Shown piece by piece: positions 454 through 24,725 of a stretch of DNA of 38,678 bases; within the stretch, counting starts at the first letter, position 1; the number at the start of each line of letters is the position of its first letter. This DNA is from an uncultured archaeon (GTDB lineage: Archaea > Asgardarchaeota > Lokiarchaeia > Helarchaeales > HEL-GB-A). Under the pieces are notes generated by a model. The model was given only the letters and a program-made list of their open reading frames with translations, made no database searches and was not told where the DNA came from. Where the stretch lies: the NCBI GenBank assembly GCA_964353755.1, contig CAYGYC010000002.1, positions 1-38,678 of the forward strand, given 5' to 3'. Made by a program: the position numbers and the translations under genes.

Positions 454-1662
454 ATGGTATTAGGAGAGAACGAAGTGACACGAACAATAATTTTTACGGG
501 CAAAGGTGGTGTCGGAAAAACGACCTGTGCCGCAGCCTCAGCCCTCCAATGTGCAAAAATTGGGAAAAAGACCCTGGTCATGTCCAGCGATCCCGTGCAA
601 GCTCTTACGGATTGTTTAAACGTAGAGTTGGGTGTAGAGGAACCGAGAGAAATACGAAGTAATTTGTTTGGTCTGCAAATTGACTTAGAACGAGAAATCG
701 ATAAATACTATGGGACGGTTCGGAATTTTTTAATGCGGCTCTTCGAATCACGGGGTATCGAAACGGCGATTGCGAGTGAGATGGTTGCTTTACCAGGCTT
801 GGATGAATTGGTTTCCATCTTAAAGATAACTGAATATCTTAATCAGTTTGAAGTCATAGTTTTGGATACCGCACCTACCGGGCATACCTTCCGGCTTCTG
901 AGTTTTCCCCAAGTATTTAGTCTGTTCGGAAAGTCTATTCTCCGGATTCAACGCGGGATTATGAAAATTTTCGAGCCTCTCCGCGAACGCACGGAACAGG
1001 TCGTGCGCACGCCGATTCCAGATGAACTCTTCTTTGGGCAGATGGAAGGCTTAATTGAACGAGTCAATTCCATGCGAAATCTCCTTGTAGAATCCACGAA
1101 GACCACCGTGCGGATTGTTACGAATCTTGAAAAGATGGCCATTCTAGAAAGTGAACGGGCCTTAACTTTTATGAGCCTGTATGGCTTAAACGTGGATGCC
1201 CTGTGTGTAAATAAAGTGATTCCAGAAGGAATTAAAGATCCTTACTTTCAGAAATGGAAAGCCTCCCAAAGTGAGTATATGCGTCAGATTGAAACCAGCT
1301 TTTATCCGCTCAAAATTTTAAAGGTATATTTGAAAGAGGAAGAGGTTATCGGTCTAAAATCATTGGAAGCTGTAGCTACTGATATGTATGGGAAAAATGG
1401 TGACCCGTCCGAAATCTTTTCGCAGGAAAAACCCTTCACTCTCGAGACGGATCCAGAGGGCAATGTCATAATGACGATCAATTTACCATTTGCCAAAAAG
1501 GTAGGGGAAACCAAAATCCGCAAAAAAGGAGAAGAGCTTATCATACAATTGGGGGACTACAAGCGGATTTTATTGTTGCCCACCATTGCCCAGAATATGA
1601 AAATTGGAAGCGCCCGGTTTGAGGAAAATAAATTGATAGTTACCTTCATAAAATCTCCCTAA
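454..1662 (+). CDS. ArsA/Get3 (TRC40)-family ATPase with C-terminal HSP20-like (ArsA_HSP20) domain
   Basis: Deviant Walker A IIFTGKGGVGKTT and the ArsA/Get3 signature DTAPTGHTFRLL are present. The C-terminal ~75 aa (PFTLETDPEGNVIMTINLPFAKK...GDYKRILLLP...ARFEENKLIVTF) is alpha-crystallin-like. An alternative GTG start at 475 follows an AGGAG at 463-467. Confidence 0.9.
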   Translation: MVLGENEVTRTIIFTGKGGVGKTTCAAASALQCAKIGKKTLVMSSDPVQALTDCLNVELGVEEPREIRSNLFGLQIDLEREIDKYYGTVRNFLMRLFESRGIETAIASEMVALPGLDELVSILKITEYLNQFEVIVLDTAPTGHTFRLLSFPQVFSLFGKSILRIQRGIMKIFEPLRERTEQVVRTPIPDELFFGQMEGLIERVNSMRNLLVESTKTTVRIVTNLEKMAILESERALTFMSLYGLNVDALCVNKVIPEGIKDPYFQKWKASQSEYMRQIETSFYPLKILKVYLKEEEVIGLKSLEAVATDMYGKNGDPSEIFSQEKPFTLETDPEGNVIMTINLPFAKKVGETKIRKKGEELIIQLGDYKRILLLPTIAQNMKIGSARFEENKLIVTFIKSP

Positions 1663-1694: not shown

Positions 1695-2816
1695 GTGATT
1701 TTACGGGGGAAAAAAATTTGGCTGACGAAAGGCGGATTACTGGACTTATCCAATCAAGGGCTCTCCAATATTTCACCCATCGAAGGGCTGCAAGATCTCA
1801 CAAGTCTTAAATATTTGGTTCTGAACAATAATCGGTTCCTTAATCTTAATTGGCTTAAAGATATAGAAAGGTTACCCAATTTTCGGTTCCTAGCCCTCAA
1901 TAACAATCAAATTACGGCCCTTCAAGGCTTGCAATACCTACCCCGTCTTGAAACCTTGATTTGCACCAATAATAGGATTAAGGATCTCACGGGTTTAGAG
2001 AATTTGCATGCCCTTAAAAATTTGAACCTCTCCCACAATGGGATATATGAAAGTTCAGAAATCGAGAAATTAACAAATCTTGAGGACTTGGATCTCTCTT
2101 ATAATCGCTTACAGGTAATTAAAGGATTGAACTTATTAAAAAAGCTTATTCGATTAGACCTTTCTCATAATGATCCCGCAGAGATCCACGGATTGGAAGG
2201 TTTAAAGGAACTTCAATTTCTAAATCTAGAGTATAACCATATTTTTAAAATTGCGAATCTCGATTCACTTAGAAACCTGAGTAACTTGAATCTGGAAGGT
2301 AATCAGATCAAGAAAATTGAAAGATTAGAACTTCTGACGCGCCTTAAAGACCTCAATCTTAATAATAACCAAATAACCTCAATTGAGGGGTTAGATACTT
2401 TAAAAGAACTCCAATTTTTGCATTTAAAATACAATTCTATTAAAAAAATTGAAGGATTGCGCTTCTTGGATGCCTTAGAATATCTTCAACTCGATAATAA
2501 CCAAATCACTACAGTTAATGGAGGCGAATTTCCTCCCAATCTTCGATATGCGTCAATTAAATCAAATCAAATCCAGGACCTGCACAATTTGCCTTTTGGA
2601 ACCGCATTTCACTTCGAAAGAAATAAAATTACAAGTATGGAAGGGCTTGAAAACCATCTGCGCTATGATAAAGTGTTCCTTTTTGAGAATCCCGTTATGG
2701 CAGAAGTTTTTATGAATTACCCTCACTGGATTACAAGTGGCAAATATTGGAAATATTCAGTTCCCGAAGATGATTTAAAAGAAGAAAAAACAAAAAATGA
2801 TAATGAAATTGCGTAA
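1695..2816 (+). CDS. leucine-rich repeat protein (22-residue SDS22/internalin-class LRRs), no signal peptide
   Basis: About 13-14 consecutive LxxLxLxxNxIxxIxxLxxLxx repeats, e.g. LKNLNLSHNGIYESSEIEKLTN, LEDLDLSYNRLQVIKGLNLLKK, LKDLNLNNNQITSIEGLDTLKE. GTG start lies 32 nt after the Get3-like stop. Confidence 0.9.
   Translation: MILRGKKIWLTKGGLLDLSNQGLSNISPIEGLQDLTSLKYLVLNNNRFLNLNWLKDIERLPNFRFLALNNNQITALQGLQYLPRLETLICTNNRIKDLTGLENLHALKNLNLSHNGIYESSEIEKLTNLEDLDLSYNRLQVIKGLNLLKKLIRLDLSHNDPAEIHGLEGLKELQFLNLEYNHIFKIANLDSLRNLSNLNLEGNQIKKIERLELLTRLKDLNLNNNQITSIEGLDTLKELQFLHLKYNSIKKIEGLRFLDALEYLQLDNNQITTVNGGEFPPNLRYASIKSNQIQDLHNLPFGTAFHFERNKITSMEGLENHLRYDKVFLFENPVMAEVFMNYPHWITSGKYWKYSVPEDDLKEEKTKNDNEIA
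1737..2670 (+). repeat. tandem coding repeats (66-nt / 22-aa LRR periodicity) inside the LRR gene
   Basis: I aligned the repeat units by hand from the translated ORF. The boundaries are approximate. Confidence 0.75.
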
Positions 2817-2999: not shown

Positions 3000-4457
3000 T
3001 TAAAGATCTCCCGTAATTCTTTTCTTGTTCAACACCTCTAGGACAGCTGGCATAAAAACGCGAATAACTTTCTTGTAAATTTTGGTATTTTCTGGAATGG
3101 GCGATTTGGTAGTCGCAAATCGTACCATCTTTTGTATGGCTGCTTCAAAACTCGCATAATTTTTAAGTCCCACAAATCCTAGTATAGCGGCGCCCAGAGC
3201 GGCGCCATCCTTATTTTCTGCCACGCGAATTGGTTTATTGATAATATCTGCAAATATTTGAGACCATAAATCGCTGTTCATTCCTCCGCCATCGACCCGT
3301 AACTCTGTGGCTTTTTGCCTAGCCAGGCCCTCTAATAAGCCTAGATACACCTGCGCTGATAATGCAGCGCTTTCCAGAATAGCACGAATAAAATGTCCGC
3401 GAGTATGGCCTAACCCTAGAGCCATCAACTGGGCTTTCTTGAAAATGTAGAGCGGGAGGATCAATAATCCTTCACTCCCGGGTGGGACTTTTTGGGCTTC
3501 CGCCATCAAAGAATCATATATATTAATTTTTTTATCCATACATTCCTTAACTTGCGCTTGGGAAAAATTATCACGGAACCAATTCAGGGCAGTGCCTGTA
3601 CCCGGCATAGTACCTTCTAAAACCCATTTATTTTTTATGACATGGGGAAGGCTGAAGATGGGAATGTCCCCGGGCGAGGGAACGGGATGATCAACGACCA
3701 AATCAACAAAAGTACCGGTCCCCGTTGTGGTTTTTGCCTGCCCATTATTAACCACACCCAGCCCCAACGCAGAACATTGTTGATCACCGCCGCCTACTAT
3801 GATCGGTATTCCTTTTTTCAACCCTAATTCCGTAGCCGCAGCTTCCGAGAGTTCTCCAACAATTTCCCCGGGCATGCGGAGTTCAGGCCATAATTCCACT
3901 GGTAATCCATATAATTCGGCTAATTGCTCATCCCATTGATAGGAATCCATATTTAAAATTCCATAAATGGCATTGGAGGGGTCAGTAACTAGTGCCCCAC
4001 AGAGTTTCATGTAACAAAAGGCATCAGGAAAGATGATTTTAGAGGCGTTATTGAATAGGTTTGGATGATTATTTTTAAGCCATAATAACTTTGGAATGGC
4101 TCTCCTTAGCCCGCCTTCTTTTTGAAACTCCTTCATATCTGAAACTTCCCGTTCATCCATCCAGGTCAAAGCGGGATGCAAAATTTCACCGGTTTTGGAT
4201 ATGAAGGTACTGGATGCTCTATGAAATGCGGCCGATATGCCGATTAAATCAGCTGGATTAATTGCTTTACTCACTTTTTTGCATGTATTTTTGATTGCAT
4301 TCCACCATATAGCCGGATCTTGTTCAGATATTCCAGGAGGTTGTCTTTCAAGTTTGTATTCCTCATAAAATTTCACTAGTTCTTTTCCATCAATATCAAA
4401 AACAATACTTCTTGCCCCAGTTGTACCTACATCAAAAACTAGCAACAAATTGCTCAT
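3000..4457 (-). CDS. FGGY-family carbohydrate kinase (glycerol/xylulose-kinase-like)
   Basis: N-terminal actin-fold phosphate-1 motif LLVFDVGTTGARSIVFD and GGGDQQCSALGLG (GDQQ as in glycerol kinases). Length is ~485 aa. A GGTGA Shine-Dalgarno lies 4 nt upstream. Sits directly downstream of the G3P dehydrogenase gene. Confidence 0.85.
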   Translation of the reverse strand: MSNLLLVFDVGTTGARSIVFDIDGKELVKFYEEYKLERQPPGISEQDPAIWWNAIKNTCKKVSKAINPADLIGISAAFHRASSTFISKTGEILHPALTWMDEREVSDMKEFQKEGGLRRAIPKLLWLKNNHPNLFNNASKIIFPDAFCYMKLCGALVTDPSNAIYGILNMDSYQWDEQLAELYGLPVELWPELRMPGEIVGELSEAAATELGLKKGIPIIVGGGDQQCSALGLGVVNNGQAKTTTGTGTFVDLVVDHPVPSPGDIPIFSLPHVIKNKWVLEGTMPGTGTALNWFRDNFSQAQVKECMDKKINIYDSLMAEAQKVPPGSEGLLILPLYIFKKAQLMALGLGHTRGHFIRAILESAALSAQVYLGLLEGLARQKATELRVDGGGMNSDLWSQIFADIINKPIRVAENKDGAALGAAILGFVGLKNYASFEAAIQKMVRFATTKSPIPENTKIYKKVIRVFMPAVLEVLNKKRITGDL

Positions 4458-4476
4458 TATTTCACCTCTAAATTAA

Positions 4477-6252
4477 TTATAACTCGCCTTTAAAGAAAAA
4501 TGAATTTGCTTTAATATAAGAAAGGTAAAAATCTATTTCTGCCTTCTTTCTATTCTCGTTCCACCCCAGAAATGCGCCCATAATCTCGGCGGTGGTTTTT
4601 GCGACTTTACGTTGCCTCGAGGGATGGACTAACCAACAAATTTCGGTGCGTCTGCACAGAACATCATTCAAATGTCTTGGGATTTCATGTTTAATAATAT
4701 AAATAAGTTCTGCCTTTGTCCAGGGGAAGTATTTGGGGGGATATTCAGGATCGTGTATTAACAGTTCCGTTAAAGCATGATCTTTTAACATTTCATCAAT
4801 AATTATCAGCGCCCCTCTCCCAAATTCGATGTAAAGATGGTTCAATATCTCGGGATCTATTTTGCCTTGAGCCGCTTGGTATTGTTTACTCGCTTCAAAT
4901 TCATCGCGTTTAAGACTAATCTTGTACGGAATTTTGGCTATATTTTTGGCTTCAGACACATTATTAGTGCCATTTCTGGCGATATCGACTTTTCTACTCT
5001 TCAATATATATTTACGCATTAAATCTTCAGCCATAACCCTATAAGTCGTATATTTCCCACCAACTAAAGTAAACAGCCCATCTTCTCGCTCAAGAACTAG
5101 ATGTTTTCTACTCACTTCACTCTCTGACTTCCCTGGATCCAGCACTAACGGGCGGACCCCTGCATAGGTGCCTAAAATGTGGGCATCATCCATTTTTGCC
5201 TTAGGAAACAACAATTCTACGGTATTTCGGAGATAATCCACATCTTTTTTAGTAGCAACTGGTTTATCCAAATCTTCATCATAGAAAGTATCTGTTGTTC
5301 CTATTAAAACCCAGTGTTCACGAGGTAATACAAAGAAAAATCGATGGTCATCAATACTACTTATTCCAAAACCGTGATTAATTTTAAAATCATCATATTT
5401 GACCGCAAAATGAATTCCTTTACTGGGTCTTATTATTTTAGAGCTACCCGTATTTCGCAATATGTCATCTGCCCATATTCCCGCACAATTTACGACTACA
5501 GTTCCTCTGATAGTAAATGGTTCATGTTTGGCTTTGGGATTGAATTTATCATTCTCAACTACTTTAACTCCAGCAATCAATCCTGTTTCATCATGTATTA
5601 AATCTATCACTTTCAAATAATTGAGCGCAGTGCATTTACCCGAAGCAACGCTTTCTATAATTGTTTCAACGACAATTCTACCATCGTCCATATTGGTATC
5701 ATAATACAAGCCCACCCCCTGCAATTGATCCGTGTTGAGTTCGGGCTCTAATTCCGCTACTTTTTTCGGGTCGTCGATAATTTCCCACGGTTTATAATTT
5801 TGATTTTTACTACAATCATCATAGGTTTTCAAGGCAACTTTAATCATTTGCATATCATTACTGCTGGGAGGCAAAGCTTTTCCCGTACGAGGATCTGTTC
5901 TTTGACCAAAAACAGGTATAATAAACTGTAAAGGGCGCACATTATGGGGAAGCCCTTCATTTCGTAGCCAATCTCTTTCCCTGGTTGACTCTTCTACCAA
6001 TTTAATTTCAAAGGTTTTAAGATATCTCAACCCCCCATGGAACAACTTGGAAGATCTCGAGGAAGTGCCTTCCGCAAAATCATCCTTCTCAACCAGGGCA
6101 ACATTAAGCCCCCGCAATACGGCATCTCGAGCGACACCAGCTCCCGTTATTCCACCGCCAATGATAATAAGGTCAAATTCAGTCCGCTTCAATTTATTTA
6201 TGATTTCCGCCCTTTCTTTCTCGGAAAAACTGAGGTTCAGTATATCTTCCAT
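4477..6252 (-). CDS. FAD-dependent glycerol-3-phosphate dehydrogenase (GlpD/GlpA/GPD2 type)
   Basis: Dinucleotide fold DLIIIGGGITGAGVARDAVLRGLNVALVEKDDFAEGTSSRSSKLFHGGLRYL, plus GGKYTTYRVMAED and a C-terminal helical domain typical of GlpD/GPD2. Confidence 0.9.
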   Translation of the reverse strand: MEDILNLSFSEKERAEIINKLKRTEFDLIIIGGGITGAGVARDAVLRGLNVALVEKDDFAEGTSSRSSKLFHGGLRYLKTFEIKLVEESTRERDWLRNEGLPHNVRPLQFIIPVFGQRTDPRTGKALPPSSNDMQMIKVALKTYDDCSKNQNYKPWEIIDDPKKVAELEPELNTDQLQGVGLYYDTNMDDGRIVVETIIESVASGKCTALNYLKVIDLIHDETGLIAGVKVVENDKFNPKAKHEPFTIRGTVVVNCAGIWADDILRNTGSSKIIRPSKGIHFAVKYDDFKINHGFGISSIDDHRFFFVLPREHWVLIGTTDTFYDEDLDKPVATKKDVDYLRNTVELLFPKAKMDDAHILGTYAGVRPLVLDPGKSESEVSRKHLVLEREDGLFTLVGGKYTTYRVMAEDLMRKYILKSRKVDIARNGTNNVSEAKNIAKIPYKISLKRDEFEASKQYQAAQGKIDPEILNHLYIEFGRGALIIIDEMLKDHALTELLIHDPEYPPKYFPWTKAELIYIIKHEIPRHLNDVLCRRTEICWLVHPSRQRKVAKTTAEIMGAFLGWNENRKKAEIDFYLSYIKANSFFFKGEL

Positions 6253-6253
6253 T

Positions 6254-6874
6254 TTATTTCAACCCCATTTGGAACAATAATAATCCGATAAGCATCGTTA
6301 AAGGTGCCAAAACTAAGAGTAAAGGGAAAAGATCGGTGAGAACCTTCGTATTTAAAGCATTTCCTACGAGAAAAATTATAATTCCAAAGGTAATATCGAA
6401 GCTATTTATACGGATTTGTCCAGATGATTTCAATCCCACCTTTAAATACAAGATAGGTATGATAAGGGCTGAGGCTGAGCCGAAGGCCACCCACCAAGTT
6501 ACAAGATTCAGGTCATTATATGAAGGCACGATTAAAATTAGACTTGCAAAAACCAACACAGTGATAGTGGGAATGAATTTTAACTTGGGATACACGTATT
6601 TTTCAACGGCAAACATCAAGCCACCTATTCCCAGTACCGCGAAAAAGGATGCTATGACATATATTAATGAATCGGGATCCGTCCCATAAATGGAATTGAC
6701 AATGAGTAAAATTCGACAGAGCATATAAAAAACTGTAAAAAGCGCAATGCTTAAAAAATAAAACTTTCGTTCTACTTCCTTTTTTTGGGCTTTGATTATC
6801 AAATATCCTGTTAAAAATCCTAAATAAACCGTTAAAAATATAAAAAACGCGGTAGAAAGATTCTCATATTGCAT
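6254..6874 (-). CDS. polytopic membrane protein (about 6-7 TM helices), unknown function
   Basis: Strongly hydrophobic 206-aa ORF. Its stop is 1 nt from the G3PDH start. No NPA motifs, so it is not a GlpF-type channel. Confidence 0.7.
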   Translation of the reverse strand: MQYENLSTAFFIFLTVYLGFLTGYLIIKAQKKEVERKFYFLSIALFTVFYMLCRILLIVNSIYGTDPDSLIYVIASFFAVLGIGGLMFAVEKYVYPKLKFIPTITVLVFASLILIVPSYNDLNLVTWWVAFGSASALIIPILYLKVGLKSSGQIRINSFDITFGIIIFLVGNALNTKVLTDLFPLLLVLAPLTMLIGLLLFQMGLK

Positions 6875-6960
6875 TTTAAACCCTTCTTTTAATTGTGGCT
6901 TTTACACGATATTTAATTAATAGTAATGGGAGTTTAAAATTCATTTCGCTTCATTCTGAA

Positions 6961-8091
6961 TTAGACTATTCGATTAACTAATTCAACCAGATCTATTACT
7001 TTTAATTGTCCAAGGTTGGCGGATTTTTTAAAATGATATTTACAGAGCGGACAAGCCGAAATTAAATATTCTGCCCCAGTTTCAAGTGCTTCAGTAATTC
7101 GGTTCTCTCTCACAGCATCAGCAAGTTCTGGAAAGTTTGACCGGACACCACCTCCGGCCCCACAACAGAAGCCTTTCTCCCGCGAATGATCCATTTCTAA
7201 CACGGAGACCCCTTCCATTTTTTGGAGGATTTTTCGTGGGACATCATAAAAATTCATTCCTCGACCGAGATGGCACGGATCGTGATAAGTAACCTTAGAT
7301 TTGAGTTGTTCTCGCGAGATATCACCTAATTTATTATAAATAACTTCACTGATATGCATAACATTAACATTAAAATTAGGTCGATGCTTTGGATAGAAAT
7401 CTTTGATAACTCTATAGCAAGCACTACACGGAGTAATGATTTCTTTAATTGCATGGGTTTGCCATTCTTCAACATTATGATTCATTGCTTCAATTACTGG
7501 ACTTAAAAAGCCAGTGCGAATCGCAGGAGATCCACAACACCATTCGTCTTCCATTATTGTAAATTCAACTTTTAATTTCTGTAACAATTCAATTGAAGCT
7601 CGGGCAATTTCAATTTCGCGATAGGAGCCCATACATCCCAAAAAAAGCACCGAAGAAACATCTTCCTGAGTTCTAATTAAATCTTTAACTGAGTTATATC
7701 GGTTTGCGTGAGTTTCATTAAGTGGATTATGATGTTCGGAGATACTCTTGGCAATTTTTGAATATTGAGAAACATCGATCCCAGATTCTACGATTGAGGC
7801 TCGTGCAAGTTCCATTAATTCGGCTTCATCTACTTTAGGAAGGCAAAAGGAATTACAGAGATTACAAGTCAGACAGGAGAATATGCTTTCCAAAGCTCCT
7901 TGATCATAGGAACGGATTCCCTTTTCATTTAAATTCACATGGAGAGAGCGAATATAGGGGGTCAGGTTCTCTGAGGCTGAGGCAATGACAGTTGGGCAAT
8001 TATCACGGCACATTTTCATGCAAGTACTGCACATTTCCAGTCTAAATCGAATTTGGCGTGGCAGTCCTGTCTTTTGCGTCAATCGAATCAC
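6961..8091 (-). CDS. (Fe-S)-binding CCG-domain protein, GlcF/GlpC/HdrD-like
   Basis: Two ferredoxin-like Cys clusters (CSTCMKMCRDNCP, CLTCNLCNSFC) and two CCG motifs (WCCGSP, FCCGAGGG). The start is 2 nt after the stop of the upstream flavoprotein gene. Confidence 0.85.
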   Translation of the reverse strand: MIRLTQKTGLPRQIRFRLEMCSTCMKMCRDNCPTVIASASENLTPYIRSLHVNLNEKGIRSYDQGALESIFSCLTCNLCNSFCLPKVDEAELMELARASIVESGIDVSQYSKIAKSISEHHNPLNETHANRYNSVKDLIRTQEDVSSVLFLGCMGSYREIEIARASIELLQKLKVEFTIMEDEWCCGSPAIRTGFLSPVIEAMNHNVEEWQTHAIKEIITPCSACYRVIKDFYPKHRPNFNVNVMHISEVIYNKLGDISREQLKSKVTYHDPCHLGRGMNFYDVPRKILQKMEGVSVLEMDHSREKGFCCGAGGGVRSNFPELADAVRENRITEALETGAEYLISACPLCKYHFKKSANLGQLKVIDLVELVNRIV

Positions 8092-8093
8092 CT

Positions 8094-9527
8094 TTAAAGT
8101 CCTAATTTCCCAGGATTCATTATATTATTCGGATCAATTAACTTTTTTATCCCTTTCAATAGGGTAAAAGTACCAGAACCGAGTTCTTGTTCCATATATT
8201 CGCCCCGGAATATCCCGACACCATGATGATGCGATATGCTCCCCCCATTTTCCAGGCAAGTTTTTAACCCGTCGCGCCATGCTTGTTGATATAATAGGGA
8301 GGCTTTTTGCTCCTTTTCTGTATCTTTTTCCAGCAGCACAAAAATCAGGTACATACTCCCCCCTTCTAAATAGAAATGAGACCAATGAGCCATGACATTT
8401 ATCTTTTTGCTTTGAATGGCCTGCTTCATCTTGTTAAATAAATTTTCCAGGTTATCAAAGGTCGTTACTACATCGATGGTATCTGCCAGAACATTCATTT
8501 TAATCCAGTCCGGGTTAGGATAATACATGTTCAATCGATTTTTAAACCAAATTTTCCCGCCTTCGTCACCCATATCCTTTGCGCCTTCATTGAAACAAAT
8601 CTCCGAGCACACCTTCTTCTGATATCCAATAAGATCCTTAGTTTCCTTGTAACCATCGAACGAAAGCGTTAAGTAACTCTGGTCCTTTTCGATCTCTTTA
8701 ATGTGATAGACCATCCGCGCCTCGACGGCTTCATAGAGCCGGATAATCGAGGGTTTTATGCCGAGATTCATTATCTTTCTTACGGCATTAAAACCTGCGG
8801 TTAACGTGGGAAAGAGAAATCCCGCAAATTCTCTAATATCCGGATTTCTTTTGATGCTCAAACAAATATCGGTAATGATTCCGAAGGTCCCTTCTGTCCC
8901 GATAAATAATTCGTTGAAATTTGGGCCAGTTGCTTTACGAGGAACGCGTGAATGATTCGTATGGATAACCTCACCTGAGGGGAGGACCACCTCTAAATCC
9001 AGCACCATATTTTCTATATTACCATACAAGGAAGATAATGCGCCGGCTGATCTGGTAGCTACAAACCCCCCAACAGAACTTGTTGTTAAGGAGCTAGGTA
9101 GATGCCCTAAAGTATAGCCGTGTTTATTTAAAAAGTCCTCCAAATGTTGGCCAATAACCCCTGCTTGACATAAGACGTAATTTGATTCCTTATGAATTTC
9201 TATTCGTCTTAATTTTTTCAAATCAATTGCTAGTCCTCCGGTCAAGGGGACAATGCCGCCATTGACACCTGCCCCCCCTCCGTACGGGATCGCGGGAATT
9301 TTATACCGATTAGCAATTTTCAAAATCTGCGAAATCTGTTCTAGTGAATCAACCCAGACGATGTAATCCGGAAAGGGTTGCTTTAAAATAGACGGTAACC
9401 GGTATTGCATTATTTTCAGCTGAAACGAATCCCGACCATACGCAATTTTATCTGCGTCCTTTGAGGAAATATTTTTTTCGCCAACTATGGATTCTAATGC
9501 TTTATAAACGGTTTCATTCTTTACCAA
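8094..9527 (-). CDS. FAD-linked oxidase (VAO/PCMH fold), GlcD / alkyl-DHAP-synthase-like
   Basis: FAD-binding region PYGGGAGVNGG. Blocks GHLPSSLTTSSVGGFVATRSAGALSSLYGNIENMVLDLEVVLPSGEVI and NGGSISHHHGVGIFRGEYM...IDPNNIMNPGKL match the AGPS/GlcD family as I remember it. Confidence 0.85.
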   Translation of the reverse strand: MVKNETVYKALESIVGEKNISSKDADKIAYGRDSFQLKIMQYRLPSILKQPFPDYIVWVDSLEQISQILKIANRYKIPAIPYGGGAGVNGGIVPLTGGLAIDLKKLRRIEIHKESNYVLCQAGVIGQHLEDFLNKHGYTLGHLPSSLTTSSVGGFVATRSAGALSSLYGNIENMVLDLEVVLPSGEVIHTNHSRVPRKATGPNFNELFIGTEGTFGIITDICLSIKRNPDIREFAGFLFPTLTAGFNAVRKIMNLGIKPSIIRLYEAVEARMVYHIKEIEKDQSYLTLSFDGYKETKDLIGYQKKVCSEICFNEGAKDMGDEGGKIWFKNRLNMYYPNPDWIKMNVLADTIDVVTTFDNLENLFNKMKQAIQSKKINVMAHWSHFYLEGGSMYLIFVLLEKDTEKEQKASLLYQQAWRDGLKTCLENGGSISHHHGVGIFRGEYMEQELGSGTFTLLKGIKKLIDPNNIMNPGKLGL

Positions 9528-9623: not shown

Positions 9624-10250
9624 TTATTGGAAAAATTTTACTATATCATCAAGAATGGGTGGGCGAAATTTAATCGTTTCAATATCCATCGGATATTCCA
9701 TTAATTCAGTTAAACTGAAATCGATAAATAAAATCCCAATTTCCTTAGCGCCCAAAGTGTTTTGAATCATATTCATAATAAAAGCTGCCCGTTCTTTTTT
9801 GGTTTGAATGACATATTCTGTATCTATATCCAGCGCATTGGGACTATTGGCTTCAATTAGCCACGCCATATACTCATTAAATAGTTCTTCATTTTCCGTT
9901 TGCTCCAGCTGGGCATCCAACTTTAAAATTGATTCAATCATTTTTAATAACCGTTCATTCATGCTCAAGAAATCTTGTAATTGTGATTGGATTTTCTCTT
10001 TTGATTTCGTAAGGGATTCTACATAAACCCGATTTATCTTCCCAATTTTCGTTGATATTTGCTGAATCCATTCCTCTAAAATCGTATAGAATTGATCAAC
10101 TTTTTCATCATAATCCGTCGGAAGTGGAAATCTAATAGACCGCCTATAAAAAAAGAAAGGGATTTCTAATAGTTTTTTTGATTTTTGACCTAAATCAGAA
10201 ATTGAAACTTTGTCAATTTTGCCAATCTCTGATTTCTGGGGCATACACAT
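9624..10250 (-). CDS. hypothetical, predicted helical/coiled-coil protein
   Basis: 208-aa ORF starting 4 nt after the stop of the longin-like membrane protein gene. No family recognised. Confidence 0.6.
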   Translation of the reverse strand: MCMPQKSEIGKIDKVSISDLGQKSKKLLEIPFFFYRRSIRFPLPTDYDEKVDQFYTILEEWIQQISTKIGKINRVYVESLTKSKEKIQSQLQDFLSMNERLLKMIESILKLDAQLEQTENEELFNEYMAWLIEANSPNALDIDTEYVIQTKKERAAFIMNMIQNTLGAKEIGILFIDFSLTELMEYPMDIETIKFRPPILDDIVKFFQ

Positions 10251-10254
10251 TCAC

Positions 10255-11160
10255 TCATAGGATTTTCTCGCTATATTCAGCTAAGGGATAAAGTTTTCTG
10301 CGTTCTTTCAGCCGCCCTCCATACATCCCACACAACAACGACAAGGAGACGAGTAAGGGGCTAAAAGCAAGGTACCATAAAAACACATTTACATCCATGA
10401 ACTCTTGTCTAGCAGATGTTACAGAGCCAATAAGAAGTAGAATCCCAACACTCGTACCAAGGAGGAGGGCAGTCCAAATGCCGCGTTTCGTATTTCCTGC
10501 GATATATGCGGCTAGGAAAGTGGGTAGAAGAAATATAATGCAACTGAAACCCATTAAAGCAACAATTATAACTAAAGTAATAGTTTGTAATGTTTGAAGT
10601 TCAATTGCGCTAAGATTATCAGAAAAATCAATAGGAGGAAGCCCGAATCCCGCAATATTTATCTGAGAAATACGAATAATTGCCGGTACAAACAATAAAA
10701 GTATAAGTCCCATTACCAACAATCCAGTAATAAATCCGATAATCATTTTAAAATTCGTACGGGCGGAAACCTTTCCTTCCAGGATTGAATCAACGGTAAA
10801 CCTGAATTCTTCGAATTCTTTGACATTGGGAGCTTTGGTTTCTAACTTTTGGCGAAAGATTGTGTAGAAATCGGTTAAAATCTTTAATAAGAGTTTACGA
10901 ATCAAGGTTAAATTATCTCTTGGATCGGCAATAACTATTCCAATAAGAGAAACTTTTTCCGAATACTTTAAAATTGCGAGTTGTTCTCCTGTCTGCAGCT
11001 TTAACGACTGCATTCCAGCCCCTAACGCCTCGGTTGCAAATGATCCTAACGCATTGATAAATCCGGAAATTAATTGATCATCAATTTTACTTTTTTTAAG
11101 AAAATGCTTTGCAAAAATGCAAACTCCATTCTCTGTAGTAATATAAAGCGAATGAAACAT
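10255..11160 (-). CDS. membrane protein: N-terminal longin/roadblock-like alpha/beta domain fused to about 4-5 TM helices
   Basis: N-terminus MFHSLYITTENGVCIFAKHF...DDQLISGFINALGSFATEALG...LAILKYSEKVSLIGIVIAD...LLLKILTDFY has the secondary-structure pattern of longin/roadblock/TRAPP-type modules. It is followed by hydrophobic segments (IIGFITGLLVMGLILLLFVPAII, ITLVIIVALMGFSCIIFLLPTFLAAYIAG, and others). The domain call is pattern-based only. Confidence 0.65.
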   Translation of the reverse strand: MFHSLYITTENGVCIFAKHFLKKSKIDDQLISGFINALGSFATEALGAGMQSLKLQTGEQLAILKYSEKVSLIGIVIADPRDNLTLIRKLLLKILTDFYTIFRQKLETKAPNVKEFEEFRFTVDSILEGKVSARTNFKMIIGFITGLLVMGLILLLFVPAIIRISQINIAGFGLPPIDFSDNLSAIELQTLQTITLVIIVALMGFSCIIFLLPTFLAAYIAGNTKRGIWTALLLGTSVGILLLIGSVTSARQEFMDVNVFLWYLAFSPLLVSLSLLCGMYGGRLKERRKLYPLAEYSEKIL

Positions 11161-11519
11161 GCATTAAGTTATTGGAAATTAAGTATATATCCTTAATGAA
11201 AATTAATTTTTCCTTACCATTAAATGGTACGGTACAATTGATTTAGAAATTGCAGGAAAAAGGGGATGCTTATTCTTTGGTCGTGTGAATAAGATACACA
11301 ATTAACCCCACATAGGCCAGAATAACGATAAAACTTATTAAAATACCTTCGAAAATCATTTTTCTTTCAACACCTATTATTTTATTAACGTAAAATATTA
11401 ACAGGATATAAATGGTTTTGAATTATTTTCAATTGAGAAAAGAGTTCGGAAATATTGTGAATGGGATTAAAAAGTGACTGAGAGATTTCCAAAAAGAAGG
11501 GTGAGTATTTATAATGGAA

Positions 11520-15325: not shown

Positions 15326-15865
15326 TTATTCCAAACTAACTGCCCAAATCGTTTCTCGGCCTTTCTTGCCGTCGCGCTTAATTTTCCCTGAAAGCACTAG
15401 TTCGAGAAGGTAGCGTCGGATTGTTTGCGTATTAAACTTGAAATAATTCTTTAATTCGGAGATGGTCATTTTCTGCTGTTCTTGGAGCATATCGAACATG
15501 TTTTCTTTGATGGATTTCGGCTGCGCGGGTTTCGAGGCTACTTTAGGATAATACCGTTGTGCAAATTTCAGTAATTCGCTGTAATTCTGCAGACTTTTAC
15601 TCCCATCCAGAAAGAGGAGCAATAAGTTCATTTCTTCGGGATACGCAACGACATAGAAATCTTCAAAGAAAATGGCCCGGGGTTTGATTCCATTGCCGCT
15701 TTGAAACATTAAATAGAAGGGGGTACAGAATTTTTCTAGATCGACTTCAAAGTCCTTGGCCAGAGATTTATTCCATTCGATTATTGGTCCTTTTAATGTA
15801 TCGAATCCAATCATCGCTATTTTCTTAACTTGATCCGTTGTCATTTCCATCTTTCTCTTCACCAT
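15326..15865 (-). CDS. longin/roadblock-like domain + C-terminal winged-helix fusion protein (putative GTPase partner)
   Basis: The N-terminal ~100 aa (IAMIGFDTLKGPIIEWNK...FYVVAYPEEMNLLLLFLDGS...) looks like an alpha/beta regulatory module. The C-terminus MTISELKNYFKFNTQTIRRYLLELVLSGKIKRDGKKGRETIWAV is wHTH-like. Possible starts are 15865, 15850 (preceded by a GGTGA SD), 15844 or 15814. The first three overlap the GTPase 3' end. Confidence 0.75.
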   Translation of the reverse strand: MVKRKMEMTTDQVKKIAMIGFDTLKGPIIEWNKSLAKDFEVDLEKFCTPFYLMFQSGNGIKPRAIFFEDFYVVAYPEEMNLLLLFLDGSKSLQNYSELLKFAQRYYPKVASKPAQPKSIKENMFDMLQEQQKMTISELKNYFKFNTQTIRRYLLELVLSGKIKRDGKKGRETIWAVSLE

Positions 15866-16340
15866 TCGTTGCCTTTAATAATTCTTTTATCAAAATATAA
15901 TACAGTTTCTCTTTTTGATGCGTATCTATTGCTGTTAGTCCATAAGTTGGCACTTGTAAGACATTCTCAACGCGTTTTGCACTGAAATGACCATCGATAT
16001 CCTGTTTATTAGCTATTGCCACAACACGCGCGTTCTGGTGCGTGTGATTCACCCAATCCACCAACTGCTTAGTTTGCAGAACATTTTGAGGCGATGAATC
16101 CGTTACCACGAAGACTAAAAATGAACCGTTTAAAAATTGATCCCAAAACGGTTGAAATGCCGCTTGTCCTCCTATGTCCCAAAGTTTCACCTCATGTTCC
16201 CCAAATTGTAAACTGGCGAAGTCTAATCCGATGGTCGGCTTGTAATCGAGTGGGGGGACTTTCCCTGATAATAATTTTATCAACGTGGATTTTCCTACTG
16301 ACGGATATCCTAAGAAGGCTACTTTTACGCTTACTCCCAT
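15825..16340 (-). CDS. small GTPase, Arf/Sar-like (Ras superfamily)
   Basis: G1 is GYPSVGKST, switch I is KPTIG, G3 is WDIGGQ followed by AAFQPFW (Arf-type WDxGGQ..RPLW), and G4 is NKQD. The 171-aa protein begins MG. Confidence 0.9.
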   Translation of the reverse strand: MGVSVKVAFLGYPSVGKSTLIKLLSGKVPPLDYKPTIGLDFASLQFGEHEVKLWDIGGQAAFQPFWDQFLNGSFLVFVVTDSSPQNVLQTKQLVDWVNHTHQNARVVAIANKQDIDGHFSAKRVENVLQVPTYGLTAIDTHQKEKLYYILIKELLKATNGEEKDGNDNGSS

Positions 16341-16514: not shown

Positions 16515-18344
16515 ATGAAAGTGTTAAGTAAAACGGCAATGGTGGTTTTGGAGCAGCGTTATTTGGCAAGGGATATCCATGGCAACATTATCGAAACGCC
16601 TGAGAAGATGTTTCGACGGGTGGCTAATAATATTGCCGCGGTAGATAAGATATATGGCATATCTCCAAAAGAAATTCAGGATATTGAAGAAAGGTTTTAT
16701 GATTTAATGGTAAATTTGGATTTTCTCCCCAATTCACCGACCTTAATGAATGCCGGTCGTAAATATCAGCAGTTAGCTGCATGTTTTGTATTACCCATTG
16801 AAGATTCTATAGTAAGTATTTTTGATTCACTAAAATATGCCGCAATCATCCATCAAAGTGGGGGAGGGACCGGCTTTTCCTTTTCCAATTTACGGCCCAG
16901 AGGCGATATCGTGAAATCGTCAAATGGGGTGGCTTCTGGTCCTGTGTCGTTCATGAAAATTTATGATGCGTCCTCCGAGCAAATTAAGCAGGGGGGGATG
17001 CGGAGAGGCGCGAATATGGGGATTCTGCGAGTGGATCATCCGGATATTATTGAATTTATCACGATCAAGGATGATCCAACGGTATTAACAAATTTTAATA
17101 TCAGTGTTGCCATTACGGATGCGTTCATGGATGCGATAAAACGGAATGAAGCCTATCCGCTTATAAATCCAAGAAATAGACAAGTAATGCGCAAGGTAGA
17201 GGCGAGGAGAATCTTCGATCTGATGGTGTTAATGGCATGGAAGAATGCGGATCCTGGCGTTATTTTCATTGATTCCATAAATAAAGCAAATCCAACACCT
17301 CATCTCGGCAAAATAGACGCCACCAACCCATGCGGGGAAGTCCCTCTTTTACCGTGGGAAGCCTGTAATTTGGGCTCGATTAATGTGGCAAATTTTGTTC
17401 AGAACGGAGGAATTGATTATCCAAGGCTTGCAAAAACAGTACAAACCGCCGTGCATTTCTTGGATAATGTAATAGATGCAAGTAAATATCCCGTGAAAGA
17501 AATTGATAGGATGGTGAAAGGGAATCGTAAAATAGGTTTAGGCGTGATGGGATTTGCAGATTTACTGATTCAATTGAAGATCACCTATGGATCTGAAAAG
17601 TCTTATGAAATAGCGGATGAATTAATGGATTTTATCGAAAAGGAAGCCTATAAGGCATCAGAAAAGTTAGCCGAAGCGAAAAGGGTGTTCCCTAACTACA
17701 AAGGAAGCATTTATGACGGGAAAACAAAGCTTCGGAATGCGACTTTGACGAGTATTGCCCCCACCGGCACCCTAAGTATTATTGCAGGCTGTTCCAGTAG
17801 TATTGAAACGTTATTTGGGGTGGTCTTTCGCCGGCGAATTCTAGATGGACGAACTTTTTTAGATGTTAATCCCTATTTTGAGAAATTAGCTAAGGAAATG
17901 GGAATTTATAGTACCACGTTAATCGAGAAAATTGCCAATCAGGGATCAATTAGAGATATTCCTGAAATTCCAGAAGAACTTCAAGAAATATGTGTGACGG
18001 CTTTTGAGGTTTCTCCCGAATCTCATGTAAAAATGCAAGCAACTTTTCAAAAACATGTGGATAATGCCGTTTCTAAAACGGTAAATCTTCCTCAGACGGC
18101 AACTATTAAAGATGTTGAAAAAATCTTTTTGCTGGCATATGATCTGGGCTGTAAAGGAATCACGGTTTATAGATATGGGTCAAAAGAAAGCCAAGTTTTA
18201 TCAATTGGAGAAGAAGAAAAAAGTTCAACAGAATTTCACTCAAAAACCAGTGAAAAATGCCCTGTCTGCGGCTCAGAAAATTTAGTTCATCAGGCATCCT
18301 GTAATTTTTGTAAAGATTGCGGATATTCTATTTGTTTATTATAG
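16515..18344 (+). CDS. nrdJ: class II (adenosylcobalamin-dependent) ribonucleotide reductase with C-terminal Cys-rich zinc finger
   Basis: Active-site block [34 protein letters not shown], and C-terminal [26 protein letters not shown]. No ATP-cone and no intein-sized insert. Confidence 0.92.
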
Positions 18345-20413: not shown

Positions 20414-23400
20414 TTATACTTGTTTCCCAAATTTTTTCAGTTTCTCTAAGAGATCTTTTTGGCGTTCTTGACTATCAAGAATCATTCTAAGTTTGTCTGG
20501 ATCATTTATCTCCGATTTATCTAGTACTTCATCTGTTTCTTTTATGTAGAGATGATATTCACTCATTATATTGGAAACCTCGCGTTTCAGCTTTTCTTTG
20601 TACTCAACAATGGTCATTTGTTTTTTCCACTGGCGCCGGCGGTACAGTAAGATTCCTACAATAATATTGGTAATTATCAAAGCAATCAGCATCCCCAAGA
20701 AATTTTGGAACCAAGTCGCCCATTTTTGGGGTATAGGGGGCTTATCGTCATCAGGAGGTGCTGCATCTTCTAAAACTAATTGCTGAATGCCATAAGAGGA
20801 GGTCTGCGAAGGGCTATTAGCGTAAATAACTAGGTAGTAGGTCCCAGTTTCATTAAGCCATCCATCTAAATATAGGGTATTATACCATCCTCCTTGTACA
20901 TGGAATAAAATCATGTAGAGTAGTCGATTTGAGGGCGTGATAAGGCACGAAAATAAGGTTAAATTGTTAAATAAGTCAAGTCCTTTGTTTGAAGTGATAT
21001 GAATTGAAATTGAAAGATGTTCTCCGATCCTTAATGGCGCTGATTCATTATTTTTATTTATGATTATTGAAATATTGATAGTATCTTTTAGAAGCCAATT
21101 GAGTGAATTATTTAGGAACTGGAAATTGTCAAGCTCCGTAATACACGACGCATTGAATAAACTAGAATCGCCTACGCACAAAATCTTCCCCAAAGTATCA
21201 TTCACGAGGATAGTAGGCTCCCCGTTGTATTGCGTAAACAGAGTTGTTACGGATAAATTCAGAAAAGTAACGAATGTATATAGTCTAATCCGCGTTAGAT
21301 TCCGCGAAATATCATGTTGATTAGGGTTTATAAAAATCTGATCAGTTATTGAATTAAAAGAATTTTTAATCAGAATTCCAAAGCGGTTTAAAATTGAATT
21401 AATGGAATAATGTTCACACTCAGTCTTTGGTTCTAACAAAAAAAACAAACTGCCGCCATTCATCCCAAATTTGATTAAAGTATCGACTTCCGTTTGAGAT
21501 AAATTAACCTCTGGATCACATATTATTACCAAATCATAGTTTGAAATGAAAGAATAATTCTCTTGGAAAGTACTGGTATGATAGGGAAGTTCAAAGGGGA
21601 GAGAAATAACGGTATCCAGTGAAAAATTAGAATACTGTTTTAATAAACCAAAATCATCCACATCGTAATTATTCATTTGACATAAGTTATAGAGATTAAA
21701 ATAGCTGCCATAAATGGTATCTAACCGTTCAGCCCAAATCGTAAATAAATCTTCAATTTGAAGGAGATTCTGAAAGCTGAGGTTCATTGGTTTATAAAAT
21801 AATATACGCCCTGCTGGATATTGGACTGAAAAATTAATCCATACTTCCCCAATATGGAAATTCTCTGCAGTGATATTCACCTTATGATAAAATGATCCAA
21901 TTATTGGAGTTTGAGGCAGAGTGATAATTATTTGGAGACTTCCAAAATTTTGGATCTGTGAAGGTAAGCTATAAGAAATCCAACTGGGAGGAAGGTTTCC
22001 AGCAATTGGTACGACTTGTAAATTATTAAGTGGGTAATTTGTGGTCAGTGAAATATTAAAAATCCCAATATCATTTGGAAAATGAATTAATTGAGGGGCA
22101 AAAGGGATAATTTTCGGGAATAGGGAATGAATTTTGAAGGAATTATCTTTAATGAAGATATTTCGAGCGAAAAAGTTATCCATATAACTTTCTTCTTGGG
22201 ATATTTCTTCGGTAAATCCCATTAGATAGAGAACTAATTCGTTAATGAGCGATTCAGTGCCTGCAAACCAGAAAAGAGAGTAAATATCCACCTCGGTGGG
22301 ATTCCAACTGGCATTTACCCATTTAAATTCAAAGGGTGCTAATCTGCCTAAATGTATCACTTTTGAAAAGAAGGTTTGTGTTTGAGCAGCGGTGGAATTA
22401 ATGATGAACATTCCTAGGCTGTCATTGACCACCACATTTCCCAGATTAATCAGGAGGACATTACTGGTGTAGGGTTGATTTATATTTCCGAGTCGAGAAA
22501 TATTTGAACACAAGAGCGCCAAATTAGTTACATTTTCAGATGAAAACCGATTTTTCATTGCATAAATTGAGTCGTTTATCCCTTGATATGAGCCTCCAAC
22601 ACCAATATATTGAGAAAAGCGAATAAATTTAGAACTATTTAATCTTGAGATTAAATCCCATTGCATCGCTATACTTTTATTTTTGGAAATGGCATCATTA
22701 TTTAATAACGAATTGGCTTGAATTTGGGTTCTAATGCTTTCGCTTGTGTTAATTTCGTGAGCAGATGAAGGAATACAACCAGTATATCCTATGTATGAAG
22801 AATTCCCCTTATTGGAATCATGAACGTAAATAATATCATCAATTGAGTTAAATTCACAAGTATCATTGTTATTCTGATTAGAGAATAAATTCGTGGACCA
22901 TGAACTGAAGACGGTCAAATTATGAAGCGCAGTTGATTCTAAATTAATTAGAGTGAGATTAACACGAAATCCATTGATTGAAGACCAAGCTTCCATAGAA
23001 AAGATACATAAAACTGAATAATCCGTAATAATCGATTGACTTACTGAGAATTCGGAAGTCAAATTATGTAATTCCCGTAAAATATACATGTCAGATAACC
23101 ATTTTACATTATTATTATATTTAATGGCTAACTGACCCTGAATTAGATGCGTAAAATTTTCGTTTCGCCCTGATTCAAGGATTGCTATTAAAGATCCATA
23201 AGAGGTAACAAAAGCAGTTAGATTTTGGTTTCGTACATAACCTAATGAGAATAGGGTAGGCGTATATAATCTTTCTTCAGTTAATGAAGTATTGAGACTA
23301 TTATCAACTAAATAAGAATGCGCCGCCACAATATTCACTAACCCCGCCCCTTGAACATTCGGATTTAGAGTCGAAAGTGAAATTGCAGTCTCTTGAAGGA

Positions 23401-24697: not shown

Positions 24698-24725
24698 ACT
24701 CCTTATTATAAAAATATGGTTAAAT

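Follow-up and report, generated by a model that had tools for sequence, protein, structure and literature searches.

An uncultured archaeon of the Helarchaeales (Asgardarchaeota, Lokiarchaeia, HEL-GB-A) encodes a protein of 301 amino acids (aa) in which a cytosolic longin domain is predicted to be fused directly to a membrane domain of four helices. The window analyzed here is a stretch of 38,678 nucleotides (nt) from contig CAYGYC010000002.1 (assembly GCA_964353755.1, positions 1 to 38,678), and the gene, identified from the list of open reading frames (ORFs), its homologs and an AlphaFold model, occupies 10255..11160 of the minus strand from its ATG start through its stop codon. We are highly confident of the longin domain. 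For the whole protein, the explanation that we favor is a docking platform that resides in the membrane, which is plausible but tentative. A preliminary description of the sequence had listed this ORF together with a downstream ORF of 208 aa at 9624..10250. Both are present, both lie on the minus strand, and all peptide strings quoted for the 301-aa ORF were found in its translation.

Longin Domain of the 301-aa Protein

The 301-aa protein was modeled with AlphaFold2 from 31 sequences, giving a mean predicted local distance difference test score (pLDDT) of 83 and a predicted template modeling score (pTM) of 0.73. Residues 1-127 (10780..11160, minus strand) were assigned to a cytosolic longin domain from the secondary structure of the model, Foldseek and the Pfam matches of relatives. 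Longin domains are recognized by the order β1-β2-α1-β3-β4-β5-α2-α3, with no helix ahead of β1 and with an extra C-terminal helix (PMC10933270). The modeled chain opens directly with β1 and follows the same order, with strands at residues 2-9 (β1), 14-19 (β2), 52-54 (β3), 60-66 (β4) and 72-78 (β5) and helices at 28-47 (α1), 84-108 (α2, divided into 84-101 and 103-108) and 113-127 (α3).

A Foldseek search of the model against the PDB, which the preliminary description had proposed, returned longin proteins exclusively at ranks 1-42 (E 2.9e-4 to 1.8e-2, probability 0.98-1.00), with 2vgl_S as the top match (E 2.9e-4, probability 1.00). TM-scores over these ranks were 0.45-0.69 for single-domain targets of about 120-160 aa and 0.18-0.24 for large multi-domain chains. 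The proteins recovered were the sigma and mu N-terminal domains of AP-2, AP-1 and AP-3, TRAPP Bet5 and Trs23, Fuzzy, Mon1-Ccz1, zeta- and delta-COP, the SRX domain of SR-alpha, and Sec22b, and the longin domains of Ykt6 and Sec22b occurred among the structural and sequence matches of the protein. For most of the longin proteins at ranks 1-42, the binding partner is an Arf, Rab or SR-beta GTPase.

The best Pfam signal of the 301-aa protein itself, Sybindin, was sub-threshold (E 0.04, 14.4 bits vs. a cut-off of 25). Among relatives with a profile E <= 1e-10, Pfam matched Fuz_longin_1 in 10/50, Longin in 8/50 and Clat_adaptor_s in 6/50, and Intu_longin_1 and Sybindin were represented as well. Some of these relatives exceeded the gathering score (P0147 for Fuz_longin_1, 27.6 bits; P0168 for Clat_adaptor_s, 22.6 bits), and members with transmembrane (TM) helices matched longin models at sub-threshold E only (best 0.0014-0.005). 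Because the order of elements in the model, the Foldseek ranking and the Pfam bridge through relatives agree, the N-terminal ~127 aa are almost certainly a longin domain. The N-terminus had been described beforehand as resembling longin, roadblock or TRAPP-type modules. Fold and Foldseek bear out the longin part of that description, and the roadblock part falls away. A roadblock/LC7 identity was rejected given the lack of an N-terminal helix and of any Robl_LC7 match, and MglB appeared only at ranks 43-47 (E ~0.02).

GAP-type (GTPase-activating protein) longins, namely FLCN, SMCR8, NPRL2 and their Asgard counterparts, are marked by a GP motif in the β1-β2 loop and a conserved arginine finger (PMC12290439), and the 301-aa family has neither. 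Across 31 sequences, G12 is invariant and the next residue is V, I, A, T or S, never P, while R81, the sole candidate arginine of the domain, is kept in 25 and replaced by K in four and by Q in two.

Membrane Domain and Topology

Only eight residues (128-135) separate α3 from the first TM helix, in agreement with the earlier proposal that a cytosolic module is joined directly to a polytopic membrane domain. The model places TM helices at residues 136-165, 185-221, 224-248 and 259-288, and hydropathy likewise gave four segments. Four or five helices had been claimed; the model, hydropathy and charge counts all speak for four, and a fifth found no support. The resulting four-helix domain (residues 136-288; 10297..10755, minus strand) contains the loop motif Y219-I-A-G-x-x-K/R-R-G227 and is followed by a basic, predicted cytosolic C-terminal tail (G-G-R-L-K-E-R-R-K-L-Y-P-L...), which is encoded together with the stop codon at 10255..10296 (minus strand) and recognized as a family-wide motif.

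Charges were counted in 31 sequences. The two predicted outside loops, which are short (~10-19 residues), conserved and acidic, carry a mean of 0.2-0.3 K+R and 1.5-3.1 D+E. The four-residue loop between TM2 and TM3 has a mean of 1.6 K+R, and the C-terminal tail has a mean of 5.5. This positive-inside pattern indicates that the N- and C-terminus are both cytosolic, with the longin domain on the cytoplasmic side. In the same sequences, the TM helices contain neither conserved His or Cys residues nor buried charges. Two motifs on the predicted cytosolic side are kept across 78 diverse family members: 'GYIAGxxKxG' lies in the TM2-TM3 loop, and the C-terminus has 'GYxGGxxxxRxxLYP'.

The membrane domain matched no curated family or solved structure in Pfam, NCBIfam or a PDB sequence-profile search, the best Pfam signal being DUF2231 at a sub-threshold E of 0.018. 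Pfam scans of the 78 members gave scattered weak matches only (DUF3792 in six, DUF2207_C in five), none of them consistent. The preliminary description had allowed for the family being a known transporter or sensor class, and the membrane domain matches no such family.

Conservation and Distribution in Asgard Archaea

The 301-aa protein has 34 homologs of near-identical length (30-66% identity) with a conserved N-terminus, and a profile search for the 208-aa protein recovered 19 homologs (44-60% identity) with 31 invariant columns. Judged by this conservation, both ORFs are genuine genes, not chance ORFs, while scans of the two proteins with Pfam and NCBIfam gave nothing above threshold. The named homologs of the 301-aa protein all come from metagenome-assembled genomes (MAGs) of Helarchaeota or Promethearchaeota, except for one partial entry labeled Deferrimicrobium, which is probably bin contamination. 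Two contigs of a MAG named 'Candidatus Deferrimicrobium sp.' (DATKTP010000282.1 and DATKTP010000045.1, loci L008 and L010; related loci are numbered L and proteins P throughout) carry Helarchaeota-type genes with the same identities to the window genes as the Helarchaeota-type locus L001, which points to contamination of the bin. A similar cause may explain why a longin-TM gene is found on a MAG contig named 'Bathyarchaeota' (L012). The window is collinear along its entire length with a contig of the MAG Hel_GB_A (L006), and similar sequence is present in freshwater, wetland and sediment metagenomes.

By sequence comparison, the 301-aa protein is the Helarchaeota ortholog group of a large uncharacterized Asgard family. 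An exhaustive HMMER search with the family profile yielded 851 representative proteins, 135 of them at E <= 1e-10, and many of the 851 have the first ~130 residues alone in common. The fusion was not a one-off event. Of the 147 best representatives of clusters at 50% identity, about 90 have a longin domain followed by ~4 TM helices, with the polytopic part starting near residue 130-150. Named longin-TM members, all annotated 'hypothetical protein', are from Promethearchaeota, Helarchaeota, Baldrarchaeia and Odinarchaeia. Hel_GB_A alone has at least three loci (L006, L007, L011) with four family genes, plus an adjoining longin-only gene at one of them.

Family genes also occur side by side. Tandem pairs of longin-TM paralogs were found in L005/L009 and L011, and a longin-TM gene is followed by a longin-only gene in L007 and L019. 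Such tandem longin pairs fit the dimeric habit of longin platforms and hint at dimerization. One of the tandem pairs (L005:2305-8927, the same as L009) lies ~3-5 kb from genes for a Sec23_trunk/VWA protein (522 aa) and a Roadblock/LC7 protein (168 aa). Soluble relatives carry the same longin subtype in fusions with an Arf-like GTPase (P0126), a TIR domain (P0170), a TRASH zinc-binding domain and a TrmB/MarR helix-turn-helix (HTH) domain.

Partner Protein and Upstream Micro-ORF

The 208-aa gene (9624..10250, minus strand, ATG start), supported by the ORF list, a family of 19 members and an AlphaFold model, encodes a soluble protein of predicted alpha/beta fold. Its ATG lies 4 nt from the stop codon of the 301-aa gene, the spacing given before. 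The alignment of orthologs places the start at M3 ('MPxK', coordinate 10244), which is the probable true start and would widen the gap to 10 nt. The partner family was recovered by translating the genes downstream of orthologs and then searching with a profile. Synteny was assessed by tblastn of all window proteins against 26 related loci. In the window, the L001 group, L006, L016, L017 and L021, which make up six of eight distinct lineages with the ortholog, the partner gene follows the longin-TM gene by 4-36 nt, and the coupling of the two genes proposed earlier is thus upheld.

The coiled-coil or helical nature attributed to the partner did not survive modeling. The AlphaFold model (18 sequences, pLDDT 85, pTM 0.82) shows five strands and six or seven short helices in one compact alpha/beta domain, and it has no long uninterrupted heptad helices. 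Foldseek against the PDB gave weak and inconsistent matches to P-loop kinases and RecA-like proteins (best E 0.066, probability 0.28), and a PDB sequence-profile search gave no match. A degenerate GTPase or P-loop protein was considered and is not supported, as there is no P-loop motif, hhalign against the Arf-like protein of the window was null, and Foldseek probabilities were <= 0.28. A paralog of the ~206-aa protein encoded at 6254..6874 was rejected, the latter being a polytopic membrane protein. Separately, a partner homolog (P0200) is encoded 62 nt downstream of a gene for an 828-aa actin-domain protein (L027:5453-8651).

Upstream of the longin-TM gene, at a distance of 109 nt, tblastn supported a micro-ORF for a predicted single-pass membrane peptide of 29 aa (MIFEGILISFIVILAYVGLIVYLIHTTKE; 11270..11359, minus strand). 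It was found at the same upstream position in seven orthologous lineages, those named being L003/4, L006, L016, L017, L018 and L022, with 44-75% identity (E 1.7e-11 to 6e-5). A TATA-like 'TTTATATC' and a GGTG motif lie upstream of the micro-ORF.

Small GTPases near Longin-TM Genes

The window encodes one Arf-like small GTPase (15825..16340, minus strand; Pfam Arf, 3.3e-18). Its gene is separated from the longin-TM gene by 4.7 kb, which hold a peptidase gene and three genes of the opposite strand. The preliminary description had named an Arf-like GTPase pair and had called the 301-aa protein a second longin-like module near it; neither a pair nor a further member of this longin family was recovered. 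The second gene of the supposed pair (15326..15865) encodes a 179-aa protein with a C-terminal DeoR-type HTH and ~110 N-terminal residues that match nothing. No other ORF of the window matched this longin family by hhalign or hidden Markov model (HMM), and the HTH protein beside the GTPase was accordingly rejected as a second member. The GTPase gene overlaps the start of the gene for the 179-aa protein by 41 nt (15326..16340, minus strand), and the two are conserved as a pair in L006 and L022.

A specific linkage of the longin-TM gene to the nearby Arf-like GTPase is not supported. The GTPase is found near the ortholog only in loci that are collinear with the whole window (L006 and L022). Conserved synteny with a small GTPase, which had been suggested as a check, did not emerge for the ortholog group, there being no GTPase within 8 kb on either side of the longin-TM ortholog in L003.

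At the level of the family, sequence comparisons gave two hints of a GTPase link. One is P0126, in which an Arf-like domain is fused to a longin domain of this subtype (E 2e-13). The other is a single Rag-flanked paralog group (L010/L011/L023/L025), in which the longin-TM gene is preceded, 1.4 kb away and on the same strand, by a gene for a Gtr1/RagA-like GTPase of 303 aa. A gene for a 386-aa protein (weak Arrestin_C match, E 0.035) lies with the Rag-like GTPase gene directly upstream of longin-TM in these four loci, and two more Rag-like genes, convergent, lie directly downstream of longin-TM in L023 and L025.

The string of Rag-like GTPase, 386-aa protein and one or two longin-TM genes (L011:4848-9029; L023:1094-6331; L010; L025) is a possible Rag-GTPase/longin membrane module.

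Metabolic Gene Cluster

Downstream of the partner gene, the minus strand carries genes for a GlcD-like FAD-linked oxidase (8094..9527), a CCG-domain Fe-S protein resembling HdrD, TfrB and GlpC (6961..8091), a 206-aa protein that is visibly polytopic with ~6 TM helices and matches no family (6254..6874), a glycerol-3-phosphate dehydrogenase/oxidase-like protein (4477..6252) and an FGGY sugar/polyol kinase (3000..4457). The enzymes were identified with Pfam and NCBIfam, and all domain assignments in this cluster (3000..9527) lie under equivalog cut-offs. The GlcD/CCG/glycerol-3-phosphate (G3P) dehydrogenase/FGGY cluster comes directly after the longin-TM gene, or after the partner gene where that is present, on the same strand in all eight orthologous lineages with downstream sequence, at gaps of 17-157 nt, and this holds for every ortholog of at least 55% identity. 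The 206-aa protein is encoded in L003 and L006 and absent from L001 and L017. The upstream side varies and consists of a Peptidase_C69 gene in the window, L006, L016 and L022, a TetR/SCP2/ADC block in L003 and an opposite-strand FAD_binding_4 gene in L001. The genomes with orthologs are closely related, their GlcD proteins sharing 77-84% identity, so the synteny of the cluster may be plain inheritance.

Comparison with Known Longin Systems

The best structural matches of the domain were AP sigma and mu, zeta-COP and TRAPP Bet5 and Trs23 (2vgl_S, 2j3t_C, 9ddt_B and 1w63_Q; TM-score 0.55-0.69, target-normalized). These small longins share the β-β-α-β-β-β-α-α order with the 301-aa protein, which gives the weak Sybindin signal and has relatives that match Clat_adaptor_s. 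In AP, COP and TRAPP, the longins pair up, and the dimers offer Arf or Rab GTPases a platform. They are, however, soluble subunits of large complexes and none has a polytopic fusion, while the 301-aa protein remains below the Pfam gathering scores. Among the 20 annotated neighbors in the window, no large adaptin partner and no TRAPP/Bet3 or V4R Pfam match was found. Fuzzy, Mon1-Ccz1 and Inturned form a second group of likenesses, as relatives of the domain match Fuz_longin_1 and Intu_longin_1 most often and 7q3d_C, 9l0d_A and 5ldd were among the top structures. The heterodimeric longin platforms of Fuzzy and Mon1-Ccz1 for Rab parallel the tandem longin-TM pairs. Tri-longin guanine nucleotide exchange factors have three longin domains and are peripheral to the membrane, whereas the present family has one longin domain and four TM helices.

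Membrane-anchored longins of eukaryotes are tail-anchored SNAREs, and the phytolongins of plants are non-SNARE longins with a single C-terminal TM helix. The longin SNAREs Sec22b (matches 1ifq_B and 2nut_C), VAMP7 and Ykt6 are likewise membrane-anchored proteins whose longin domain is N-terminal and cytosolic. They have a heptad SNARE motif/linker of ~60 residues and a single tail or lipid anchor. The 301-aa protein has neither; it has four TM helices instead, and its loop and tail on the cytosolic side are conserved. The four-pass longin fusion with its own cytosolic motifs thus differs in design from eukaryotic membrane-anchored longins. A functional analogy can be drawn to SR-alpha SRX with SR-beta (SRX matches 2fh5_A and 1nrj_A) and to Ragulator (LAMTOR) with Rag, in which a longin or roadblock platform holds a GTPase of the Arf or Rag family at a membrane. 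In the SR system, however, the TM anchor is on the GTPase and not on the longin, which is soluble, and Ragulator uses roadblock domains and the lipidated LAMTOR1.

Longin and roadblock proteins are abundant in Asgard archaea, with 41 longin domains in Lokiarchaeum, some of them fused to GTPases (PMC4917890, PMC10933270, 10.1101/2020.10.19.343400). These soluble longins and longin-GTPase fusions, of which P0126 is one, belong to the same domain superfamily and the same phylum-level group as the present protein. In the literature covered, which was incomplete and included PMC10933270, PMC4917890, 10.1101/2020.10.19.343400 and PMC12290439, no transmembrane longin architecture was found in archaea.

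Proposed Function and Alternative Explanations

In the model that we favor, the four-helix domain would anchor the longin platform so that it lies flat on the cytosolic side of the cytoplasmic membrane, and the platform would dimerize with itself or with a paralog, as other longins do, and would dock soluble proteins there. The 208-aa protein would be the first candidate ligand in this lineage, with binding presumed, and the 29-aa peptide may join the membrane part. By analogy and from the family-level hints, a small GTPase of the Arf or Rag type would be the most plausible final client. We rate this membrane-resident docking platform, taken as a whole, just short of an even chance. A GTPase client for this particular ortholog is possible but on balance doubtful. 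A broader form of the idea, which we consider rather unlikely, would make the Asgard longin-TM family the missing membrane receptor for Arf/Rag-like GTPases, a transmembrane counterpart of Ragulator and the SR receptor; longin-TM dimers would then mark the sites of GTPase docking and switching, with the 208-aa protein as a lineage-specific adaptor and the 29-aa peptide as a membrane subunit.

Several observations weigh against the docking platform and its GTPase client. A small GTPase lies within ~6 kb in three of about eight independent ortholog and paralog groups, roughly the number that chance would give at the GTPase density of the loci compared (about one per 27 kb). Distant members from Odin, Baldr and a second Helarchaeota paralog have no GTPase within 6 kb. 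GAP-type (FLCN-like) catalysis is unlikely given the missing GP motif and the lack of an invariant arginine finger. The same longin subtype also occurs fused to HTH, TRASH and TIR domains and may therefore serve more generally for interaction or as a sensor. The partner gene is not beside the ortholog in L003/L004 and L018, so that the coupling is frequent and not obligatory. P0200, which was assigned to the MAG series of L003 through a shared ACTSRS locus-tag prefix (the prefix that P0021 also has), is a partner homolog encoded elsewhere. Lastly, none of the only three metatranscriptomes available, small nanopore sets from a related study, covers the locus.

The metabolic neighbors offer a different client. 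The 301-aa protein could be a membrane organizer or regulator of the polyol/G3P oxidation cluster; the soluble GlcD-like, CCG/HdrD-like and G3P dehydrogenase proteins would be held at the membrane or controlled there by it and the 208-aa protein. Fe-S subunits of the CCG/HdrD/GlpC type usually operate with a membrane partner, and the cluster follows the longin-TM gene on the same strand in 8/8 lineages at short gaps despite their differing upstream sides; one paralog (P0043) also adjoins a LUD_dom (lactate-utilization) gene. We nevertheless judge this explanation unlikely, as the synteny may be inherited among such close relatives, haem or another redox cofactor would find no conserved His, Cys or Met ligand in the TM helices, the cluster has a ~6-TM protein of its own, and paralogs and distant members sit in unrelated contexts. 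Still less likely is a membrane-bound signaling protein, in which the longin domain would be the sensor or switch and the four-helix domain would sense the state of the membrane or its lipids or relay a signal. Asgard archaea are reported to have many fusions of longin domains to two-component signaling domains (Liu et al. preprint, 10.1101/2020.10.19.343400), and such fusions, the outputs carried by soluble longins of the same subtype (TrmB/MarR HTH, TRASH or TIR) and the conserved acidic character of the short outside loops would all suit this role. The 301-aa protein, however, has no recognizable output or enzymatic domain, and extracytoplasmic loops of ~10-19 residues leave little space for a ligand.

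We also considered a small channel or transporter subunit gated by the cytosolic longin domain, since one source labels a homolog 'MFS family permease' and a few members weakly match ABC2_membrane_3 and MFS_1 in Pfam. These matches are scattered, mostly sub-threshold and inconsistent among members, no PDB transporter was matched, and four helices without conserved intramembrane charges are unlike known transporters, which makes this a very improbable function. A proto-SNARE, or a direct factor in membrane fusion or trafficking, would account for a longin domain on a membrane-anchored protein and for the Sec22b and Ykt6 longins among the matches. Judged from the models, it fails on its defining features, as the ~8 residues between the last longin helix and TM1 leave no space for a SNARE motif, the protein has four TM helices and not a tail anchor, and the partner is not a coiled coil; we find it scarcely credible.

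Other Features of the Window

On the plus strand, the metabolic cluster is flanked by genes for a Get3/TRC40/ArsA-family ATPase with an HSP20-like C-terminal domain (454..1662) and a leucine-rich-repeat protein (1695..2816), both kept in L006 and L017. In L007 and L019, a more divergent Get3-like gene precedes the longin-TM paralog by 1.5 kb. On the minus strand, a subtilase (Peptidase_S8) of 1465 aa (20414..24811) has weak C-terminal matches to the IFT52 GIFT domain, ABC_transp_aux and DUF2194. The window also holds an intact ribonucleotide reductase gene (16515..18344), whose homolog in L022 (L022:571-3771) is split by ~1.35 kb, possibly by an intein or another insertion.

Implications for Asgard Membrane Biology

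To our knowledge, Asgard small GTPases have no prenylation signals or eukaryote-type lipid anchors, and the Asgard longins described so far are soluble. The longin-TM family, which spans at least four Asgard lineages with several paralogs per genome, is a concrete candidate for the link from GTPase systems to the membrane. The analysis also brings up two further uncharacterized components, the 208-aa protein without a fold neighbor in the PDB and the conserved 29-aa membrane peptide. If the client of the 301-aa protein is the neighboring dehydrogenase system, this would be the first longin platform to organize metabolism at a prokaryotic membrane. If the family does serve as a receptor for Arf/Rag-like GTPases, membrane-anchored GTPase platforms would predate the origin of eukaryotic endomembranes.

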